Shown here piece after piece: positions 1-23,409 of a stretch of 32,000 bases of DNA. Numbering within the stretch: the first letter of the stretch is position 1; each line of letters starts with the position of its first letter. The notes under the pieces were generated by a model that was not told where the DNA came from, made no database searches, and saw nothing but the letters and a program-made list of their open reading frames with translations. Made by a program: the position numbers and the translations under genes. Origin of the DNA: Vibrio alginolyticus NBRC 15630 = ATCC 17749 (GTDB lineage Bacteria; Pseudomonadota; Gammaproteobacteria; Enterobacterales; Vibrionaceae); contig NC_022359.1 of the NCBI RefSeq assembly GCF_000354175.2, forward strand, positions 1,620,001 through 1,652,000. Direction: 5' to 3'.

Positions 1-1514
1 TTTTGCACTTTGGTGTTCATATGATTCGTTTCAGTCATCAGTTCATACGATTCACTGTACTTTAAATTAAGCGACTGGATGTTTTCATTTATTTCATCCG
101 TTACATAAACCTGCTCTTCTATCGCGACCGCAATTTGTTGGTTTCGTTCGACGACGTCCTGAACAAGGGACTCCAGTTGTTGAATGCTATCCAAAGCAGT
201 ACCCAGCAATGTTACCGTTCCGGTCGACATTTCGTTACCTTTCTCTAACGCAGAAACCGCTGATTTGCTCCCATTTTGAATCCCTTCAATGGCCGATTTA
301 ATCTCTGTTGTCGATTCCTGAGTTCTTTTAGCTAAGGTTCTCACTTCATCTGCTACAACGGCAAACCCTCTGCCTTGTTCGCCTGCCCTCGCGGCTTCAA
401 TTGCAGCGTTCAACGCTAATAAATTAGTTTGTTCGGCAATACCATTGATGACTTCAACAACGGTTCCAATTTGCTCGGTTTGTTGGTTCAACCGTATGAC
501 CACTTTAGATATTTCGCCGAGCTCACCCACCAGCTCTAGTACCGATTGGTTAACATTATCGATAACGCTACGGCTGTCTATCATCGTATTTTGCGCTTCT
601 AACGTAGCCTCGGCGGTCGCTTGAGCATTATTTGATATCTCAGATGAAGAGGCTTGCATCTCGTTGACCGCTGTTGCGACCGAGTCAATCTCCACTTTCT
701 GTGCGCTTAAATTCTCCGTCACTTGCTGGCTATTTGTCGCAGCACTGTTAGCACTTGCGCGCGTTTCTTCGCAAGAATCTTTTACAGACACGCCAACGCG
801 CCCCAATAGCGCATTGGCAAATTGCTTACGCATCTTCATACCCAGCTCAATCTCAGCCAGATCGTTGATTCTTCCGCAATAAATATATTCCATGAGTGGA
901 TTGTTGAAGTCTTGCCTAGCCTGTTTAGCGAGCTTTTCAACTGGTCTGGTTAATACATAAATAGAGAAAACGGAAAGTAACGCAACAACGCTAAACGCTA
1001 TCACTGGTGATTGATTCATTTGTAGAGTGAGTAAGCCAAGAAGGTTTGAAATTAAAAGGAAGAAGGCCGATCTCATCCACAAACGTGTACGAGGAAGATA
1101 CATTTTCCACGGCTTACGATTATTTCGAAGCTTCGAATACGCTTTTTCCGCTCGCTGGATGTGTATGCGCTCAGGTTTAAATCTCACTGATTGGTATTCC
1201 ACAACTTCACCATTAGATTTTATAGGAGAAGCAAACGCGTCAACCCAATAATAGCCACCGTTTTTACGTCGATTTTTGACCATTCCCATCCAGTGTTTGC
1301 CAGTTTTCAGGTGAGTCCATAAATCTTTAAAAGCCTGTTTTGGCATATCAGGATGACGCACAACATTGTGGGGTTTACCGATAAGCTCCCCTTCATCAAA
1401 CCCCGCTACTTCATTAAAGTTTTCACTGGCATATTTGATGTAACTGGAGGTATCGGTAATGGAAACTAGGCTGTAACTCGAAGGGTAATCGTATTCCGTT
1501 TCACTCATAAACAT
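1..1514 (-). CDS. aer: Aerotaxis-type methyl-accepting chemotaxis protein (PAS sensor + MCP signalling domain). Partial: the C-terminus lies beyond the left edge of the window
   Basis: Absent from the ORF track because it runs off the edge; translated by hand on the minus strand. Start ATG at 1514 (alternative ATG at 1508). The N-terminus [21 protein letters not shown]...[25 protein letters not shown]...[13 protein letters not shown] closely resembles the E. coli Aer PAS domain ([17 protein letters not shown]...[13 protein letters not shown]). This is followed by two hydrophobic segments ([36 protein letters not shown]) and the MCP hairpin [38 protein letters not shown]. Confidence 0.9.
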
Positions 1515-1793
1515 GTGTCCTAACATTGATTAATTAACAAACGGCAAATATGAATTTATCAGCATAACATTTACATGCATAATGATAGGTTGATTCAAAA
1601 ATAAAACAAAATTATTGATAGGTTTACTTGTTACTTAATGACTCTAGTCGCATTTTTATCCTCTAATACAAGGCTTCGTTAATATGCACAAGACTGAGTG
1701 CTGTTCAAAATTAATACACAAAAGCGCTTCCGTACTGAGTTCGTAAATTGTTATAAGTAATCCACTAAAGCGAAAACAAGGAAGACAAACACA

Positions 1794-3248
1794 ATGACTA
1801 TTCACTTTCGTCAGCTTGCAGCCAAGAGAAACACGACACACTTGTTTATTGACGATTGGAAAATTAACACTCAGCAGTCTTGGGGGATATTCAGCGCGGA
1901 TGGAGATATTGGCTCTCTGCTTGGAGACCTTATTTGTGATGAAATGTCACCAGATAGTGGGGAAATTGAGCTAAATGGGCTGTCCGTTGCGCAAGTGTCG
2001 TTATCAGAGCAACAGCGATTACTGGAAAGAGAATTAGAAAAGGATGATACGGATTTTCTTGATCGTATCGACCAAGGAAGCACTGTTTATTCATTAATCC
2101 TAGAGCAGAGCCAAGACACCAACTTAACTGAACAGCTAATTAATGATCTCGACCTAAGTCATCTTAAAGATAGTGGCTTCCGCGTTCTCTCTACCGGAGA
2201 AACCAGAAGAGTAATGCTCGCCCGAGCTTTAGCCACACAACCTGACTTAGTATTACTCGATAATCCATTTACTGGCTTAGATATTGCGCACCGAGCTGCC
2301 CTCGCTCGCTATTTACACTCGCTTTCTCAAAATGTGCAACTACTCATAACCTTCTCTCGCGAATCTGACATGCCTGAGTGGCTCAATAGCATCGCGCTTT
2401 TCAGTGCAGGAAAGCTTGATAGTACAATGGATAAGTCCAGTTGGGATAATCATCCAATCATTGGACAAATTAAATCTCAGTCAAAGCAACAGAGTGAAGA
2501 AATGATGAGCTTGATACGTCAGCATAAGCACTCGACTCCATTCAACAACCCAATATTTGAACTAAAGAATGGGGCTGTCGAATACACCGATAAGAAGATT
2601 TTTACTGACTTGAACTGGCGCATAGACAAGGGCCAACATTGGCAGGTCAAAGGTCCAAATGGTTGTGGAAAGAGTACCTTACTTGGATTGATCTTTGGCG
2701 ATCATCCGCAATGCTACAGCAATGACATTGATATTTTTGGTAAAAAGCGTGGTACTGGCGAGACAATCTGGGAAATTAAGCAGCATATCGGCATGGTGTC
2801 TTCAGCGCTACACCTCCAATATCGAGTCAATTGCAGCGCATTAGAAGTCATTTTGTCAGGATTTTACGATTCGATTGGGTTGTATAACCAGCCAACTCGC
2901 AAAGAGATGAATATTGCAAACGAGTGGCTCGATATCTTACATATGAGCCAGTACAAAAAAACCTCATTCAAGCAATTAGAGTACGGTCAGCAGCGACTAT
3001 TACTGATTGCAAGAGCCATCGTGAAACAACCCACATTATTGATTTTGGACGAGCCGTATCAAGGGTTAGATTTTTTGGGTAGACGGTTAGTTAAGAACAC
3101 ACTTGAACTCATCGCTAGAGAGAATTTAAGCCAACTATTGTATGTGTCTCACTACCAAGAAGACCGCTTAGATAGCATCAAAAATGAGTTAGAGTTTGTG
3201 TTTGATGAAAATGCTCAGTGTTATAGAGCTAACGTCTACCAATCATAA
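1794..3248 (+). CDS. modF: ModF-like ABC ATPase with two fused nucleotide-binding domains and no membrane domain
   Basis: 484 aa, collinear with E. coli ModF (490 aa). Shared features are the LSTGETRR signature in NBD1 and, in NBD2, HWQVKGPNGCGKSTLLGLIFGDHPQCYSNDIDIFGKKRGTGETIWEIKQHIG, then LEYGQQRL and LLILDEPYQGLD. NBD1 motifs are degenerate (see findings). Confidence 0.8.
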   Translation: MTIHFRQLAAKRNTTHLFIDDWKINTQQSWGIFSADGDIGSLLGDLICDEMSPDSGEIELNGLSVAQVSLSEQQRLLERELEKDDTDFLDRIDQGSTVYSLILEQSQDTNLTEQLINDLDLSHLKDSGFRVLSTGETRRVMLARALATQPDLVLLDNPFTGLDIAHRAALARYLHSLSQNVQLLITFSRESDMPEWLNSIALFSAGKLDSTMDKSSWDNHPIIGQIKSQSKQQSEEMMSLIRQHKHSTPFNNPIFELKNGAVEYTDKKIFTDLNWRIDKGQHWQVKGPNGCGKSTLLGLIFGDHPQCYSNDIDIFGKKRGTGETIWEIKQHIGMVSSALHLQYRVNCSALEVILSGFYDSIGLYNQPTRKEMNIANEWLDILHMSQYKKTSFKQLEYGQQRLLLIARAIVKQPTLLILDEPYQGLDFLGRRLVKNTLELIARENLSQLLYVSHYQEDRLDSIKNELEFVFDENAQCYRANVYQS

Positions 3249-4708
3249 TGACTTCGCTGCGCAAGCTTCTCATAAGGTAATGGTTTGGAGTACAGGTATC
3301 CCTGATGATATCTCACTCCCATCTGCTTTAAGTGTTCAGCTTGCGCTATGGTTTCCACGCCTTCAGCGATCAATTGTACTTGTAATTCTTCCGCGAAGTG
3401 AACCATCGCTTTTAAGACAGAAGCACTAAGGCTAGGAATACCAATGGTTTCGACAAAGCACTTATCGATTTTTAAGTAATCTATGCGCATGTGCTGTAGA
3501 AATGCTAACGAGGTTTGGCCAGTTCCAAAATCATCGATCAGCACATCAATACCATGCACTCGCAGCGCTGCAATGCATTTTCTCGCCTCTGAATCAATGA
3601 GCTGACGCTCCGTTATCTCTACCCCTAATGAGACTTTGTTTCGGCTCAACTGTCTGTCGAGCAATTGAATTTTTCTGATCGCGTTTGGTCCGACTAAATA
3701 ACCAGGCGGCACGTTAATACCAAGGTGGACAGGCTGATCAAAGCCTAATTTACTGAAGTCCTCTGCCGCTTTATCCAGAACGAAATCAGTAAGTAAAAAA
3801 ACCAATCCACTTTGCTCTGCCGCAGGGACAAACTCGTCCGGAGAAATGAACCCCTTACTTTGATGCTCCCATCGCACTAGCGCTTCAAACCCGAATAACT
3901 GGCCGGTATCAACGTTAACTTGCGGTTGGTAATACAGGGTCAACTCTCCTCTTTTTATCGCTCTTTTAAGATCCAGTATCAAATTGCGATGAGGATCAAT
4001 AAACTTATTCAACGCATACAAGCAAAGGTAGATCACGAAAATAATTGGAATTGAGTACAAAAAATAGGAAAGTGTTCTCTGTTTGACGAAAAGATCGCTG
4101 GCTTCACTCAAAGCTTCATACTCAAACATTTGCGACGATTTGATACCGATAGGATTACTTCCCGCTCTTAATGCTCCTTCTGGTGAAACTTGATCATGGA
4201 TAAACAGCGCAGAGCGTTTTAGGCGTAAATCGTTGTTAAACCCTATTGTCGCATTAAAGTAGTCATGATCGATAATCGTTACGGCTTGATAACCCCGCTC
4301 TCCTTCCGTTACCACTAGCAAGAACTGATCGTACAAGCTATCAACACTACCAAGCGCTAGCGTTTGTCCCTTGGGAAAGGTGATGTGCTCAGCTAACGGT
4401 TTAGAGATACTTCCCAATTTCGAAGAACAAGTAATGACTCCCTCTTTCACAATGAGCATTTCTTCAATATCTCGTTCAAACATTAAGCTTTGCTGGAGCT
4501 CTTCACATCGCTCAGGGTGTAGCAGCGCCGTGCGGTTTTCTGTCTCTATTTGGAATAAAATTTCATCTGCAATTTGCACATTTTTTTCTAATAAATGATT
4601 GAGATTGTTTTGCACGCTTTCACGAGCTAAATACAAAACCTCTCCAATAACCAAGGGAATAGGCAGAAGAAAAATGATGGCTTTTTTAAAAATCGCCTTA
4701 TTCAGCAT
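3236..4708 (-). CDS. Cyclic-di-GMP phosphodiesterase: N-terminal periplasmic CSS-motif sensor domain plus C-terminal EAL domain
   Basis: 490 aa. It has an N-terminal TM (AIIFLLPIPLVIG), a periplasmic region with Cys residues at HPERCEEL and the GVITCSSKLG CSS motif, and a second TM (YFLYSIPIIFVIYLCLYAL). The EAL domain carries intact motifs: GFEALVRW, NVPPG, EITER, DDFGTGQTSL, KIDKCFV, AEGVET, QGYLYSKP. Confidence 0.88.
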   Translation of the reverse strand: MLNKAIFKKAIIFLLPIPLVIGEVLYLARESVQNNLNHLLEKNVQIADEILFQIETENRTALLHPERCEELQQSLMFERDIEEMLIVKEGVITCSSKLGSISKPLAEHITFPKGQTLALGSVDSLYDQFLLVVTEGERGYQAVTIIDHDYFNATIGFNNDLRLKRSALFIHDQVSPEGALRAGSNPIGIKSSQMFEYEALSEASDLFVKQRTLSYFLYSIPIIFVIYLCLYALNKFIDPHRNLILDLKRAIKRGELTLYYQPQVNVDTGQLFGFEALVRWEHQSKGFISPDEFVPAAEQSGLVFLLTDFVLDKAAEDFSKLGFDQPVHLGINVPPGYLVGPNAIRKIQLLDRQLSRNKVSLGVEITERQLIDSEARKCIAALRVHGIDVLIDDFGTGQTSLAFLQHMRIDYLKIDKCFVETIGIPSLSASVLKAMVHFAEELQVQLIAEGVETIAQAEHLKQMGVRYHQGYLYSKPLPYEKLAQRSHYDW

Positions 4709-5056
4709 ATAAAAGTAACCTTTTATAAAACCGATTTACTGAGATGGTACCTCGATTCCGATACCCGCTAGCAACTCACGTTTTTTAACATTATTTGTTT
4801 GGATTAACTCAGTATGCGAAACGCTGAGTAATACCGCAAACTAAACAATGTCTTATTCACTCCTGTTCCAATTTAGTATCAAGCGCCTCAAACCTGAGAC
4901 TTTAATTCGACACCATGTTATGTCTATCGGTACTTGCGAAAGTCTTTACCTGTCTGTTTCTCATCATGTAAGAATTACCCATTAAAAATATTTTTCTTTT
5001 CTCAGTGATTAAGAATTATATTTGTCGTAACTCCTACAACACGTTACAACACTCTC

Positions 5057-5791
5057 ATGACGACAAACAAAGCTAATGCTAACCAGGTAAACGAAAAATC
5101 ACTGCAGTTGTTAATGCAAGTTGCAGTTAGTCCGTTCCCAGTTTCTGCGAAAACGCTAAGCGAGCAATTGAACGTTCCTCTAAGCAGCCTTTACCGACAC
5201 TTAAAACTGCTTAAAGAGTGGAACTTGATCGAAGAAAGCGTTCACGACAAGACATTTGTCGTTGGTCCGGCGGCATTGTTACTCATGCACAGCTATGAGA
5301 CCGCGCAACATGGGCTCGACATGGTCGAAACCATACTGGCTAGGTTGGTACAACAAACCGGGGAAATGGCCGCTTATATGGTACCAGCTGGTTATCGTGC
5401 GCTTTGTGTCAGACAGAAAGAAAGTATGCAGGCGCTGCGTTGCAGCTTCGTCCAGGGTCAAAGTCAACCTCTGCTGCGCGGTGCCTCATCTAAAGTGATG
5501 CTCGCTTTTATGCCTCAAAGTCGATGCGAGAAAATCTTGAGATATTTTAATCAAGATCACCGACGTGACGAGTGGGAAAAAGAGCTCACAACCATCCGTA
5601 AACACGGATATGCCGTCAGTACTTCTGAGATTGACCCTGGTGTTTCAGGTATTAGCGCACCGGTAATGAAAGGAAGCAAACTGATTGGCGCAGTCTCGGT
5701 GATGGCTCCGGCCCACCGAGTCGAAAAGGATAAGCAGCGCATTATTTTACATGTACTGCAAGCGGCAAGGGCACTACCACCAGAAAGGTAA
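5057..5791 (+). CDS. IclR-family transcriptional regulator
   Basis: 244 aa. N-terminal winged HTH (SAKTLSEQLNVPLSSLYRHLKLLKEWNLIEE) and a C-terminal effector-binding domain typical of IclR (GYAVSTSEIDPGVSGISAPV...GAVSVMAP). Confidence 0.8.
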   Translation: MTTNKANANQVNEKSLQLLMQVAVSPFPVSAKTLSEQLNVPLSSLYRHLKLLKEWNLIEESVHDKTFVVGPAALLLMHSYETAQHGLDMVETILARLVQQTGEMAAYMVPAGYRALCVRQKESMQALRCSFVQGQSQPLLRGASSKVMLAFMPQSRCEKILRYFNQDHRRDEWEKELTTIRKHGYAVSTSEIDPGVSGISAPVMKGSKLIGAVSVMAPAHRVEKDKQRIILHVLQAARALPPER

Positions 5792-5797
5792 TTCATC

Positions 5798-6637
5798 ATG
5801 TTAAGCTTTTTCAAACGCTATAAACTCCACCACACCGTGAAACAGCCGCAGCATTACCCTTTTTCTTTTATGACAGTGTGTGAGTATTTGCCACCCATGT
5901 CTAAGGGCGCGTTTGAATTAGCTGATCAAAGTTTGGAAAATGCTAGCGATTGGCTATACCAACAGCATGATCATGAAACCGCTGAAAACTTTGGGCACTT
6001 CAACCACGACAAGCTGGAAAATGGCGAGTTTCAGGAAGCATTAAGCCTTTCGCTTTCTCGCCACTCAATTCCTGTTTTAGTCACTAACTGTACCGAGGCA
6101 ATCTTGTCCATGTTACCTGTGGTCGTGTCCTATCGAGACGAAGTGGGTGTGGTAAATATTGGACATGACATGAACTTGAAACCAACACTTGAACCACGTT
6201 TAGACTCGGCATTCCATTTTGCTCTTTCTCGCTATCAAAACGTGCGATTATTTTTTGCTGGTGTTAGCGAACAAGATACAAAGCAAGAAACGTGGGAATA
6301 CGCGGAGGATCAAGGTTGTGACTGGGTAACCGATAAAGAGTTTTCTTTTCGTCATCGCAATAACGTTAAGCAACAGATCGGCAATTACCTAGACCACTGC
6401 GACCAAATAATCATTAGTATCGACCTTGGATCTCTAAAAACCAAAAACAGCCTTGATGGCGCGTCAGAAATTGATATCCAAATGGTTCTACGCACGATTA
6501 GGCAATGTTTGGTTGCAGGTAAAGTGAGAGCAATTCAGCTCGTTGGCGATCGAGATTGTCTGGTGTATTCGAGACAAACGAAAGCCATACTAGAAGAGTT
6601 ATATCAGATGGCTCCACTCATCGTTCACGCTGCCTAG
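5798..6637 (+). CDS. Hypothetical protein; possible degenerate arginase/formimidoylglutamase-fold protein
   Basis: 279 aa. The ATG lies 6 nt after the IclR stop, with GAAAGG 9 nt upstream, so it is probably co-transcribed. By eye, the order and spacing of VLVTNCTEA / VVNIGHDMN / IIISIDLGSL / AIQLVGDRD mirror the ureohydrolase motifs GGDHS / DAHxD / SxDxDxxDP / E-NP-D, but several metal-ligand positions are substituted. The family call is tentative. Confidence 0.35.
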   Translation: MLSFFKRYKLHHTVKQPQHYPFSFMTVCEYLPPMSKGAFELADQSLENASDWLYQQHDHETAENFGHFNHDKLENGEFQEALSLSLSRHSIPVLVTNCTEAILSMLPVVVSYRDEVGVVNIGHDMNLKPTLEPRLDSAFHFALSRYQNVRLFFAGVSEQDTKQETWEYAEDQGCDWVTDKEFSFRHRNNVKQQIGNYLDHCDQIIISIDLGSLKTKNSLDGASEIDIQMVLRTIRQCLVAGKVRAIQLVGDRDCLVYSRQTKAILEELYQMAPLIVHAA

Positions 6638-14188: not shown

Positions 14189-14493
14189 GCGCTCGACGCC
14201 ACCTATAACATCACGCCGTCTTATACACCAAGCGTATGCTTTGAAAGCAATGCGCTTGGTGTACTCAAAAAATAAAAAGAAAAGGCTAGCCTTTATTAAT
14301 TTTGTCGGTATACTGCACATCAGCTCTTACGGAAAGAGCTATTAATGTAATTAAAGATCAAAGTTTCTCTCAGTTCCACATCGAATTCCTCGTTTACGTT
14401 CCTGCGACAAAATAGTTATCTCTAAAATCATATAGTAGCACTTGATATTAGCTAAAAATTCAATATTTAAAACAATCAAATATAGAGGTATCT

Positions 14494-14706
14494 ATGTCTA
14501 ATAAATTAACTGGTTCAGTAAAATGGTTCAACGAAACTAAAGGTTTTGGTTTTATTTCTCAAGACAATGGCGGTGATGACGTATTCGTTCACTTCCGTTC
14601 TATTGTTTCTGAAGGCTTCAAAACTCTTACTGAGGGCCAAAAAGTATCGTTCGTTGTTGAACAAGGTAACAAAGGTTTACAAGCAGCTGAAGTAACTGCA
14701 CTGTAA
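14494..14706 (+). CDS. cspA: Cold-shock protein, CspA family (OB-fold nucleic-acid chaperone)
   Basis: 70 aa. [31 protein letters not shown] contains the RNP1 (KGFGFI) and RNP2 (VFVHF) motifs and is collinear with E. coli CspA. A strong RBS (AGAGG) is present, and a long AT-rich upstream leader is typical of csp genes. The exact paralogue name is uncertain. Confidence 0.92.
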
Positions 14707-15060
14707 TTCTTTGTGTGGCATCAATGTTGTTGGTGCCACAATCCCCTTCCACTTATTACTGCCCTTACTATTCTCTATCTAAGTTTATATACCCAAATCA
14801 CTTACCTCTCCCACACCATCATTAATCACTTTCAATAAAGTCACTTTGGTATACATCTTTAGGTAATCACACCGCCTACCTTGCAATTCCAGTTTGGAAC
14901 TAAATTAATCTCATTCATATCTGAATCACTTCGCCTCATGCTTTGCTCATAAAAATAAAGTTTATAAAATAAAAGCGATTGGCGAATATAAGAGAAAAAA
15001 TGAAATTAAACATATCTGCTCAATCAATAAATTCTAATAACTACGAGCACATAATCCCTA

Positions 15061-20822: not shown

Positions 20823-21215
20823 TACGATGAGTGGCTCAGTGCTAGTAAAGGCCGTGTATCTTATGCTATTTCGCGTCTGGATGTTAGAGATAATGGCCCA
20901 AACAGAAGATTGGTGAAAGAAGCACTATAGAGTTCAGGAATTTCCTTTCACTAACATGAGTTAACGGTTTCGATAACCAATACTCTACGACCAAGATGGT
21001 AGCGTTCGCGACAAGCAAAGGGAAAAGGAGTCAGGCACTCTGACTCCTGTAAAGCAAAATACAGCTTGAGAAAACCCTATAGCTTATAATTGGACAAAAA
21101 TGCGTTACGACAAATAGAATATTAGCAACTAATGGATAACTTCAAGTATTGAGAGCTAGCGCATGACATGTACATACGCTAGCAGGGTGCTTGTACCAAG
21201 AGCTTGAAAGATGAT

Positions 21216-21686
21216 TTAATCGCACGAACTAGGGTCTAAAACATACGTCCGACTTGAGGATTTTAATGTAAGTTCTTGTTCAGAAGTACATTCAATATAG
21301 TCATATTGCTTTATTTTTTCTCTCGTGTTGTTATCTAACCATATGGCAGAGGCAATAGAACTTAATACTATTATCGCTATAGAATATAGCCCTGTTTTTG
21401 TCGAAAATGGTACTTTTAGTAATAGTTCTGTTGACCTGTGTAGCATAGCTATGGGAATGATCGCTATAAAACCAAATATTAGAAGGCCTACAAAAGAAGC
21501 AACATTGTTCACTAAACCTGCTAGTTTTACTTTAGGAATGATACCGATTGAGTTGTTAATGCTAATTAACTCATTAATTGAGCTGTAGCTCAACCACACC
21601 ATAAAAACCATAAGAGGCCAACTAGCCATCACTTTAAGCCAACGCTTTATCTTTAGTCTTCGGTTAAATTTTTCATTAGAAATCAT
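21216..21686 (-). CDS. Small three-TM membrane protein; putative immunity protein for the upstream toxin-like gene
   Basis: 156 aa. Hydrophobic spans: WLKVMASWPLMVFMVWLSYSSI, VASFVGLLIFGFIAIIPIAML, LYSIAIIVLSSIASAIWL. The C-terminus is soluble. Its ATG (21686) overlaps the upstream stop (21676-21678) by 11 nt. The gene is visibly AT-rich: about 30% GC on a hand-counted 60-nt line, against about 45% in the neighbouring helicase gene. Confidence 0.45.
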   Translation of the reverse strand: MISNEKFNRRLKIKRWLKVMASWPLMVFMVWLSYSSINELISINNSIGIIPKVKLAGLVNNVASFVGLLIFGFIAIIPIAMLHRSTELLLKVPFSTKTGLYSIAIIVLSSIASAIWLDNNTREKIKQYDYIECTSEQELTLKSSSRTYVLDPSSCD

Positions 21687-22587
21687 TAATAGTTTTCTCT
21701 ACTTGATTCTTCATCGGTTCCGTGAATTTAAATTGGTCATCTAGTTTAGATATTTCCTTTCCTACAATAAACGCAGTAACAGCGAAAATACCAAGTGTTA
21801 GAGCGGTTGGCACAACAAGTACCGTACTTAATGTTGCGACTCCCAGAATAGTTATTCCTTGAGCGATAACTCCTGCGGCAATGCCCTTAGATATATCCGC
21901 TGTAAATTGGCCGACCACTTCACCTAGCGTTTTTTCATCATGTAGAATGTAGTCAACCGCATTAACCGCACCACTAAACACAAGTTCAACATAGATGTTG
22001 CCTTTCAAGAAACTGACATTGCCTTGAACAGTATTTAGAGCATGACCAATTTTAAGCATTTGTGGTGTTGCTTCTTGCCAACGGATACCTAGGTCTAAAT
22101 ATTTAGGCTTGTAGTTCTCAACCACAATATTCATTACACCATTGATATTGACAGCTTTAGCGGTTGCCCCCCAAGCGCCAAGCTCTTTAGCGACCTCATA
22201 AGCGCCTTTAAGCCCCATGCCTACGCCAGTGTAGTCCTTGCCGTTCGAAAGTTGTCCATGCGAGTCTTTGATGAGCAAGTCTAAATACTCGTTACCTTCT
22301 TCAACAGTCAGTACCGCAATACTCACGTTCTCTTGTTGAGAGGTGTCCCACTGATATTCTTTAGCTTGCTTTTGTAAATCATCGTTCCATTCTTTTTCTG
22401 TTAGGTCGTAAGCTTGTTGGTCCGCTTTGCGTTCAGCAAGAACGCGCTCTCTATTTTCAGTCCATCGTTTCTCATCGCTCGCGGTAGATCTCAGCTCTTC
22501 CTGACGTTCTCGGCGTTGACGTGCTGCTCGTTCTCTAGTGGTTTCTTGTCTTTCTTCTGGGGCTACAGGAGAGGATTCATATCTCAT
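21676..22587 (-). CDS. Putative membrane pore-forming toxin with a colicin channel-domain-like C-terminus
   Basis: 303 aa. The N-terminal ~80 aa are a highly charged R/E/Q-rich coil (ERQETTRERAARQRRERQEELR...). The C-terminus has an uninterrupted ~42-aa G/A/V/T/I hydrophobic hairpin, GIAAGVIAQGITILGVATLSTVLVVPTALTLGIFAVTAFIVG, followed by KEISKLDDQF. By eye this parallels the colicin A helix 8-9 hairpin GIASSVALGIFSATLGAYALSLGVPAIAVGIAGILLAAVVGALIDDKF. An in-frame TGA 48 nt upstream of the ATG excludes a longer N-terminus. Confidence 0.4.
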   Translation of the reverse strand: MRYESSPVAPEERQETTRERAARQRRERQEELRSTASDEKRWTENRERVLAERKADQQAYDLTEKEWNDDLQKQAKEYQWDTSQQENVSIAVLTVEEGNEYLDLLIKDSHGQLSNGKDYTGVGMGLKGAYEVAKELGAWGATAKAVNINGVMNIVVENYKPKYLDLGIRWQEATPQMLKIGHALNTVQGNVSFLKGNIYVELVFSGAVNAVDYILHDEKTLGEVVGQFTADISKGIAAGVIAQGITILGVATLSTVLVVPTALTLGIFAVTAFIVGKEISKLDDQFKFTEPMKNQVEKTINDF

Positions 22588-22907
22588 GGGAGTCGGTTTT
22601 ACTGATAAATAAAAAGGATAATAACAATATTTTCAGTGATTTATCATCCCCAACAAGATTGCATGATGATTTAACCAATTAAATAGGCAGTTTGACTAAT
22701 CAAACAAGCACAATGAAGGCTCAATAGTGTTGAGTTACATTCAATCGGATAACTTTTCGTAGGGTAAAACGTACGAACCAAATTTTGTAGAGTATTTATT
22801 CCAGTTCTTTTTTGGGGCAATAAAGAGTTAGCCTAACGGTCTGGCTCTTTTGAATGAAAAAATAGTCTGGTGGGAGAACTTGTAAGTCTGTGGCAGGTTA
22901 CACTCAC

Positions 22908-23168
22908 TTACTCCTTAGGCAGGTGACCAGTTTCCTTCGCTAGCTTTTGCATCGCCTCGGCAAACGTTGTTGTCCCGCCTTTAGCTTTAACCTGTATTAC
23001 CTTATATCCCAACTTTTCCAACGCTTGGCGCTCTGCCAAAACAGCTTTGTCATCTTGCTGGCTACCTTGAGCTGGCTGATGAATGTAACATCCCTCTAGT
23101 TTACCATCTTCGACCAATTGGTGGTGTTTCAGTGCATCGATATCAAAATTCATAATAAGTCTTTTCAT
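22908..23168 (-). CDS. Hypothetical small soluble protein
   Basis: 86 aa (81 aa from the alternative ATG at 23153). It lies 25 nt downstream of the DUF3820-like gene on the same strand. The RBS is weak and I recognise no family. Confidence 0.35.
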   Translation of the reverse strand: MKRLIMNFDIDALKHHQLVEDGKLEGCYIHQPAQGSQQDDKAVLAERQALEKLGYKVIQVKAKGGTTTFAEAMQKLAKETGHLPKE

Positions 23169-23193
23169 TAAGAGTGGGAGTTTCTGTGGCTAG

Positions 23194-23409
23194 TTACATA
23201 CGCTTCAAAGGCTTCACGACACTATCTAAGCCTTCAATTTTGAGCGCTAAACATAGCTTGAGCAAATCCCCTAGCTCGCCGCTTGGCCAGCCCTTTTTAT
23301 CAAACCACAGTAAGTATTCTTCAGGCAGGTCGATTAACACTCGCCCTGCATATTTCCCAAATGGCATTTGCATTCTAGCGAGTTTAATGAGGTTTTCTTT
23401 TTCTAACAT
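23194..23409 (-). CDS. DUF3820-family small protein
   Basis: The track ORF starts at TTG 23472; it is trimmed here to the ATG at 23409 (MLEKENLIKLARMQMPFGKYAGRVLIDLPEEYLLWFDKKGWPSGELGDLL...). The MPFGKY.G..L.DLPE.YL.WF motif is what I recall for DUF3820 proteins of ~70 aa. Confidence 0.65.
   Translation of the reverse strand: MLEKENLIKLARMQMPFGKYAGRVLIDLPEEYLLWFDKKGWPSGELGDLLKLCLALKIEGLDSVVKPLKRM

Follow-up and report, generated by a model that had tools for sequence, protein, structure and literature searches.

Tme1/Tmi1 of Vibrio parahaemolyticus BB22OP (WP_015297525.1 / WP_005378559.1) is an orphan effector-immunity pair of T6SS1, a type VI secretion system (T6SS) (Fridman et al. 2020, PMC7046647). 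Tme1 and Tme2 are secreted through T6SS1, are toxic in the periplasm only, and depolarise and permeabilise membranes, and only the cognate Tmi protein neutralises them (PMC7046647). The Tme domain, which was found to be distinct from previously reported toxins, is defined by a DxxK motif, a hydrophobic helix and an aspartate (PMC7046647). The N-terminal domain RIX was subsequently described as a tag that is both necessary and sufficient for T6SS secretion, as shown for Tme1 and other representatives, and that heads polymorphic toxins in Vibrionaceae, always encoded by orphan genes for which horizontal mobility has been proposed (Kanarek et al. 2023, PMC10435454). Here we analyze a two-gene locus in a 32,000-nucleotide stretch of the genome of Vibrio alginolyticus strain NBRC 15630 = ATCC 17749 (NC_022359.1, positions 1,620,001 to 1,652,000; hereafter the window), which encodes a 303-residue protein and, downstream, a 156-residue membrane protein. 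The pair is an already known member of the RIX-Tme/Tmi class of T6SS effectors with their immunity proteins, and we consider it very probable that its two genes, in one bicistronic unit, encode an antibacterial type VI secretion effector of this kind and the matching immunity protein.

The agreement with the published catalogue extends to every value that can be compared. In Kanarek et al. 2023 (PMC10435454), row 58 of Supplementary Data S1 gives, for the same strain, a 303-residue protein, WP_017821095.1, at NC_022359.1:1641676-1642587 on the minus strand, with RIX at residues 1-54 (E=6.08e-32) and "Tme1 143-300 (1.1e-16)". The downstream gene in that row, WP_017821094.1, encodes 156 residues with three transmembrane (TM) helices at a distance of -11, and the other neighbours are an 81-residue open reading frame (ORF) at 320 nt, the SrmB helicase (416 residues) at 853 nt and a DUF1289 protein (102 residues) at 966 nt. 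All of these lengths and distances are equal in the window, with a coordinate offset of exactly 1,620,000, and the locus is therefore already catalogued. A GenBank accession of the same strain is attached to the exact 303-residue sequence in a public collection. Furthermore, Table 1 of that study counts WP_017821095.1 among 137 unique proteins whose C-terminal class is 'Tme' (PMC10435454); the accession is not listed in the accessible part of the supplement of Fridman et al. 2020 (PMC7046647). A first-pass annotation of the window, made from the sequence alone, had read the two genes as an effector-immunity pair with a membrane-targeting toxin, which the RIX-Tme/Tmi assignment bears out, and its closing guess at Tme/Tmi named the correct family. 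The novelty that it supposed disappears, since the exact accession and locus were tabulated in 2023. With the gene and its immunity partner already tabulated there, domains included, the locus has little discovery value as such.

The toxin gene (tme-like; WP_017821095.1 / AGV20386.1) occupies positions 21676-22587 of the window and the immunity gene (tmi-like) positions 21216-21686, both on the minus strand, according to the ORF calls and the published table. The ORF coordinates confirm what the first-pass annotation had stated of the layout: the genes are co-oriented and overlap by 11 nt, and the tme ATG is preceded, 16 codons (48 nt) upstream, by an in-frame stop. Cluster-level searches returned 259 matches for the toxin and 16 for the immunity protein, and since both are conserved in many Vibrio genomes, tme and tmi are real genes rather than chance ORFs. 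The 259 toxin homologs come from Vibrio throughout, nearly all of them named "hypothetical", and group by identity at 97-100%, about 87% (304 residues) and about 76%. Scans of both proteins against Pfam, NCBIfam, PADLOC and PDB sequences returned nothing significant. The earlier estimate of about 30% GC for the pair holds in so far as the immunity gene is AT-rich (34.2% GC, within the lowest 0.5% of same-length windows in the 32 kb), but not for the toxin gene, which at 43.1% stands at the window average (43.5%); the upstream and downstream spacers have 35.6% and 41.2%. Also as annotated before, there are no T6SS, contact-dependent inhibition or plasmid genes nearby, and none anywhere in the 32-kb window, where the pair is surrounded by genes for a DEAD-box helicase, VF530, QSregVF_b, DUF1289 and HopJ and by metabolic genes.

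The RIX domain, an arginine-rich T6SS secretion tag, comprises residues 1-54 (22426-22587, minus strand) and is recognized both by the published position-specific scoring matrix match and by its recurrence at the N-termini of unrelated proteins. An exhaustive search with HMMER, covering 1.84 billion representatives, found residues 1-55 again at the head of proteins of 185-569 residues, with 64-93% identity. Those proteins that match solely in residues 1-55 contain Pesticin, GH108 lysozyme-like or PG_binding domains, or none, and their C-terminal parts align with the 303-residue protein at background scores. An alignment of 22 N-termini, with at least 80% conservation at most motif positions, yielded MRY.S.P...E.QETT.ERA.RQR.ER..EL..T..D..RW..NR.RV..ER; the window protein conforms to it. 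The full-length model places helices at residues 17-31 and 36-59, with a predicted local distance difference test score (pLDDT) of only about 48-54 there; RIX has been predicted to consist of two alpha-helices with short loops before and between them (PMC10435454). The named RIX matches are from Vibrio, Photobacterium and Moritella, which fits a restriction to Vibrionaceae and Moritellaceae. The first-pass annotation had described this region as a hyper-charged coil with no recognizable delivery feature. The charge is real, with R, E, Q, K and D making up 58% of the first 85 residues, whereas the second part of the description is superseded by the RIX assignment.

This tag accounts for the genomic isolation of the pair, in that delivery genes would be absent nearby because RIX targets the protein to a T6SS encoded elsewhere. 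T6SSs are found in 97.7% of RIX-encoding genomes (PMC10435454). The strain table of the same study (Supplementary Data S2, row 592) credits this strain with two or more copies of each of the 11 T6SS core components, including 2 Hcp and 2 VgrG, and with 23/23 T6SS1-like proteins (PMC10435454). By look-up, the host genome has two T6SSs, one of which is a complete T6SS1-like system. More generally, a Vibrio "orphan" toxin with a hyper-charged, arginine-rich N-terminus is to be read as a RIX-tagged T6SS effector.

The remainder of the protein forms a C-terminal toxin module (residues 86-303; 21679-22332, minus strand), delimited by alignment and by its recurrence on other proteins. In the HMMER search, residues ~85-300 recurred C-terminally on proteins with other N-termini, namely PAAR (3), LysM (2), Hcp (1), DUF4280 (1) and S-type pyocin (1), and some of these relatives are named 'type VI secretion system PAAR protein' in their source records. 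The published Tme-domain call, residues 143-300, maps to 21688-22161 on the minus strand. Across 25 diverse C-terminal modules, D217, D231, K234 and D283 are invariant or near-invariant (D231 and D283 invariant, K234 at least 90% conserved), and a second alignment (A3) has D231 and K234 invariant. D231-I-S-K234 (21886-21897, minus strand) is the DxxK signature described for the Tme domain (PMC7046647). It is followed by a hydrophobic helical hairpin at residues 235-277 (21757-21885, minus strand) and then by the invariant D283 (21739-21741, minus strand). This conservation of D231, K234 and D283 around a hydrophobic stretch agrees with the published definition of Tme. The hairpin and the KEISKLDDQF segment after it had been picked out by eye in the first pass; residues 235-277 are indeed a single uninterrupted hydrophobic stretch, with a mean Kyte-Doolittle value of up to 2.3.

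AlphaFold2 models of residues 86-303 (pLDDT 59.4, predicted TM-score 0.36) and of the full-length protein (pLDDT 44.6) were too weak for fold assignment. Both nevertheless agree on the order of elements, which is a strand, two helices, two strands and then four long helices, and both split the hydrophobic stretch into two helices at 255-260, around P260. The modelled secondary structure fits a helical hairpin, not an all-alpha ten-helix bundle. We infer that the hairpin is the membrane-inserting element. In one relative, P0180 (585 residues), the Tme module is preceded by an S-type pyocin domain (PF06958, E=4.4e-8). The Tme family is reported to be almost exclusively T6SS-linked (PMC7046647), and P0180 may represent a rare bacteriocin-type delivery of the same toxin.

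The 156-residue product of tmi shows two strongly hydrophobic segments on the Kyte-Doolittle scale (residues 53-86 and 98-118), and the published Phobius topology of WP_017821094.1 gives three TM helices (o20-37i58-80o100-117i; PMC10435454), the number that the first-pass annotation had also proposed. PF06836 (DUF1240) is precomputed for nearly all homologs of this protein and rated 'weak' for the exact product, and our own hmmscan found DUF1240 in relatives only below the Pfam cut-off (E=0.014-0.55). For Tmi1 and Tmi2, the DUF1240 likeness was seen only via HHpred (PMC7046647). A DUF1240-like status is thus plausible for the 156-residue protein. From the arrangement of the genes and the family to which they belong, we infer that it is the cognate immunity protein, translationally coupled to tme.

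By analogy with Tme1 and Tme2, this allele is presumably secreted, toxic and neutralized by the 156-residue protein, and a mechanism can be proposed on that basis. The RIX domain would target the 303-residue protein to a T6SS encoded elsewhere in the genome, most likely the T6SS1 that resembles the one of V. parahaemolyticus. In the periplasm of a neighbouring cell, the Tme domain would enter the inner membrane with its hairpin, on either side of which lie D231xxK234 and D283, and so dissipate the membrane potential and permeabilize the cell. The Tmi-like and weakly DUF1240-like partner, as an inner-membrane protein, would neutralize the cognate toxin in the membrane and protect the producer and its kin. 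The pair would have arrived by horizontal transfer at a variable site upstream of the DEAD-box helicase gene.

Several observations weigh against the reading as an effector-immunity pair. Secretion, toxicity and immunity are carried over to this allele from its relatives, the similarity to Tme1 is that of the published RPS-BLAST annotation (PMC10435454), and the identity of the toxin module to the more distant clades is only about 25-36%. Both models are too poor (pLDDT 59 and 45) to support membrane insertion, and our hmmscan did not detect DUF1240 in the 156-residue protein of the window. Regarding expression, the promoter-like match occurs at chance frequency and a clear Shine-Dalgarno sequence was not found before the tme ATG. 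Finally, frameshifted tme alleles are common in the species, and the effector is therefore dispensable.

The last point deserves closer attention. Many V. alginolyticus assemblies have tme with a 1-nt deletion in a run of six G (nt 416-421 of the coding sequence, a frameshift near codon 139) or with another lesion, and such copies are found at the same chromosomal site in L096:4547-5919, L097, L098 and L099. The damaged gene is called as fragments of 152 or 165 residues on 13-55 contigs each, compared to 53 contigs for the intact allele, and the tmi downstream of it is intact and 155/156 identical. This looks like effector decay with retention of immunity, and it offers a small natural experiment on both. 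It would also be expected if the pair were kept mainly as a defensive immunity island, in which the toxin gene is decaying or unexpressed in this lineage and selection acts on the protection that tmi gives against Tme-armed competitors; the weak translation-initiation context of tme points in the same direction. However, the tme of the window is intact over 303 codons and has every family-invariant residue, and the intact allele is widespread and 97-100% conserved in several Vibrio species, which argues for purifying selection on the toxin. We regard a mainly defensive role as unlikely, and keep to the reading of an effector with its immunity protein.

A different set of alternatives concerns the toxin domain itself. 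In outline, the 303-residue protein probably works like a pore-forming colicin, attacking the inner membrane from the periplasmic side by hairpin insertion. The first-pass annotation had gone further and proposed that the C-terminal half is related to colicin channels, having aligned its hairpin with colicin A by eye. This relatedness failed in every comparison of sequences for which a positive control worked, and the weak structure models lent it no support. The Pfam Colicin profile (PF01024) matched 0/25 family members, nor did it match the 303-residue protein, at E<=10, and an hmmsearch of all PDB chain sequences with the family profile returned no colicin, so that no similarity to channel-forming colicins was found at the profile level, an outcome which the first-pass annotation had itself named as refuting. 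Six colicins taken from plasmid records (Ia, Ib, FY, E1, K and 10) served for the further comparisons. When the Tme profile was compared by hhalign to the profile of these six, the probability was 2.8% over 35 columns lying outside the hairpin, while the positive control (Ia/Ib/FY against E1/K/10) gave 100% (E=1.5e-45). Smith-Waterman alignments of the hairpin segment with the last 80 residues of the six colicins scored z=0.15-1.8 relative to shuffles, compared to 15.5 for colicin Ia against E1, and the alignment by eye is thus not better than composition allows. The colicin signature T-x2-W-x-P-[LIVMFY]3-x2-E is present in 6/6 of these colicins and missing from the 303-residue protein. Foldseek against the PDB, using the weak model of residues 86-303, gave 0 matches at E<=1e-3, and its top 50 contained no colicin. 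The genetic arrangement also differs: the immunity gene lies on the opposite strand at 6/6 of the colicin loci fetched, and E1, K and 10 have a lysis gene in addition, whereas no lysis gene is present at the tme/tmi locus. Taken together, detectable homology to channel-forming colicins is not supported at the level of sequence.

A similarity at the level of the fold is still conceivable, because the sequence tests exclude detectable homology only and the models are too poor to decide. The Tme module and the alpha-helical pore formers of the colicin type might then be very distantly related in structure, or have converged, the former comprising an alpha/beta 'lid' and a four-helix unit whose hydrophobic hairpin would insert in the way of colicin helices 8-9. 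We give this little credence; if true, it would link T6SS Tme effectors and colicins mechanistically. Less probable again, and in our view very unlikely, is that the C-terminal half of an orphan toxin is a divergent channel-forming colicin domain of the A/Ia/E1 type, that is, a ten-helix bundle forming a voltage-gated channel via its helix 8-9 hairpin. Such a domain would suit the 43-residue uncharged hairpin near the C-terminus with the acidic amphipathic segment after it, the relative that joins the module to an S-type pyocin domain, and the modest Smith-Waterman score of the hairpin against the colicin A fragments quoted in the first pass (z=3.1). The exact sequence is also named 'Channel forming colicins domain-containing protein' in UniRef, a label which was not reproduced by the Pfam, PDB-profile, hhalign or motif tests, and a separate colicin A-like class exists among RIX proteins (PMC10435454). 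That class and Tme are, however, separate clusters in the same study (PMC10435454), and both weak models have three beta-strands before the four long helices, in addition to the failure of the profile, alignment, signature and Foldseek comparisons. A Gly/Ala/Val-rich hairpin is by itself no evidence of colicin ancestry.

The last alternative, a T6SS-independent membrane toxin-antitoxin (TA) or abortive-infection module acting inside the producer cell, could draw on the two small overlapping genes for a membrane toxin and a membrane partner, on the AT-rich, horizontally acquired DNA and on relatives that in some genomes adjoin TA, CRISPR (clustered regularly interspaced short palindromic repeats) and defence genes, but it is scarcely credible given that no PADLOC defence model matches, that Tme1 is toxic in the periplasm only and not in the cytoplasm (PMC7046647), that the N-terminus is a validated T6SS export tag found in genomes which nearly always encode a T6SS (PMC10435454), and that PAAR, Hcp and DUF4280 recur as fusion partners of the toxin module.

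The effector-immunity pair is accessory and horizontally mobile. In a blastn comparison of the window with an 'empty' site (L013), QSregVF_b ends at window position 23193 and homology resumes at 21063, with 35 nt between them in L013, where QSregVF_b abuts the helicase leader. The segment specific to the window is 2129 bp long (21064-23192) and holds the 81-residue ORF, tme, tmi and 152 nt. The exact tme allele occupies the same chromosomal site in every contig examined, and tme/tmi was found beside the helicase ortholog in 0/80 other species. The insertion and its absence from these species support the view of the first-pass annotation that the pair was acquired horizontally and is an orphan in its genome. 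In L009, L011, L013 and L032 (locus positions ~300-6000), the place upstream of the helicase ortholog is taken by an HD-domain protein, by metabolic genes or by AraC/permease genes, or is vacant. The presence of different cargo in different species suggests a hotspot of integration or recombination upstream of the DEAD-box helicase. Near the two ends of the 2.13-kb insertion, at 21054-21084 and 23246-23276, are the copies of an imperfect direct repeat of 31 nt (77% identity); one spans the junction of backbone and insert, and the other falls within the 3' end of QSregVF_b. The repeat may be a scar of recombination or due to chance.

The same genes also occur in other surroundings. In K01M1 and K08M3 (NZ_CP017889.1 / NZ_CP017913.1; Supplementary Data S1 rows 71, 76, 131 and 136), a 99% allele with an identical immunity accession is located on another replicon, where it adjoins patatin and E1/E2-like genes, and a second RIX-Tme pair, of 303 residues with a 140-residue immunity protein, lies about 5 kb away (PMC10435454). 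Tme relatives are further found on Vibrio plasmids, including those of the pJM1 type in V. anguillarum. On the pJM1-type virulence plasmid NC_005250.1 (56389-57126), a PAAR-domain protein shares 78% identity in its C-terminal part with the window protein (residues 57-302), and PAAR-Tme relatives are encoded on six other annotated V. anguillarum plasmids of ~65 kb as well (H35, H36 and H38-H41). Since the identity begins at residue 57, the swap point between RIX and PAAR is at about this residue. Another Tme relative is on a 374-kb V. maritimus plasmid, NZ_CP090440.1 (H34).

Of the remaining features, the 81-residue ORF upstream of tme (22908-23153, minus strand; gene calls, no function assigned) is called in every contig carrying the pair. 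It was rejected as an accessory gene of the system: a 78% homolog comes after QSregVF_b in L032, where tme is absent, and in K01M1 and K08M3 the ORF is not the upstream neighbour of the same tme allele. It is probably part of the backbone rather than a system component. A terminator-like GC-rich hairpin with a T-tract (21026-21048, minus strand; pattern scan and sequence) lies 168 nt downstream of tmi, just within the conserved backbone. Terminator-like sites in the region are not more numerous than expected from shuffled sequence, and the promoter and terminator scans of the locus gave matches at chance frequency only. Rfam and tRNA scans gave no matches in the locus. Elsewhere in the window, a cspA thermoregulator RNA element (Rfam RF01766, 91.7 bits, E=3e-22) was detected at 14319-14743 on the plus strand, where there is no ORF of at least 100 residues.

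Among known systems, the channel-forming colicins (A, Ia, Ib, E1, K, 10 and FY; PF01024) resemble the locus in function, with action on the inner membrane from the periplasmic side, a C-terminal hydrophobic hairpin, depolarization and a small inner-membrane immunity protein. In contrast to them, the window protein has no detectable homology or signature and no receptor-binding or translocation domains, is predicted to contain beta-strands and to be delivered by a T6SS, and its immunity gene is co-oriented and overlapping, without a lysis gene, rather than on the opposite strand as in the six operons. VasX/TsiV2 of Vibrio cholerae is alike in pairing a T6SS-delivered, membrane-permeabilizing antibacterial effector with a membrane immunity protein. 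VasX, at more than 1000 residues and encoded in a T6SS auxiliary cluster, is much larger than the 303-residue protein, and no similarity to it surfaced in any search made here. It served as the positive control for depolarization in the Tme study (PMC7046647).

The nearest characterized system is Tme1/Tmi1. Tme1 shares with the window protein RIX at the N-terminus and, at the C-terminus, a Tme domain that has DxxK, a TM helix and D, and both pairs are orphan bicistronic units with a downstream TM immunity gene in a Vibrio host of the Harveyi clade with a T6SS1. The proteins are similar in size, with 310 residues in Tme1 (Tme domain at 161-310) and 303 here, but they belong to different allele classes, Tme1 not being among the close (at least 76% identical) homologs of the window protein. 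The immunity protein of the window differs from Tmi1 in having 156 residues and three predicted TM helices. Tmi1 and Tmi2 give no cross-protection (PMC7046647), and since immunity in the family is thus allele-specific, cross-immunity with Tmi1 is not expected. The PAAR-Tme effectors carry the same toxin module, at 78% identity in the pJM1 copy and at 31-35% in the V. cholerae clade ('T6SS PAAR protein', P0300), and differ in that it is covalently fused to a PAAR spike tip in place of the RIX tag. Compared to the RIX-class polymorphic effectors (PMC10435454), with which it has the RIX match, the orphan gene and the Vibrio T6SS1 host in common, the window protein shows no difference in kind and is itself a listed member.

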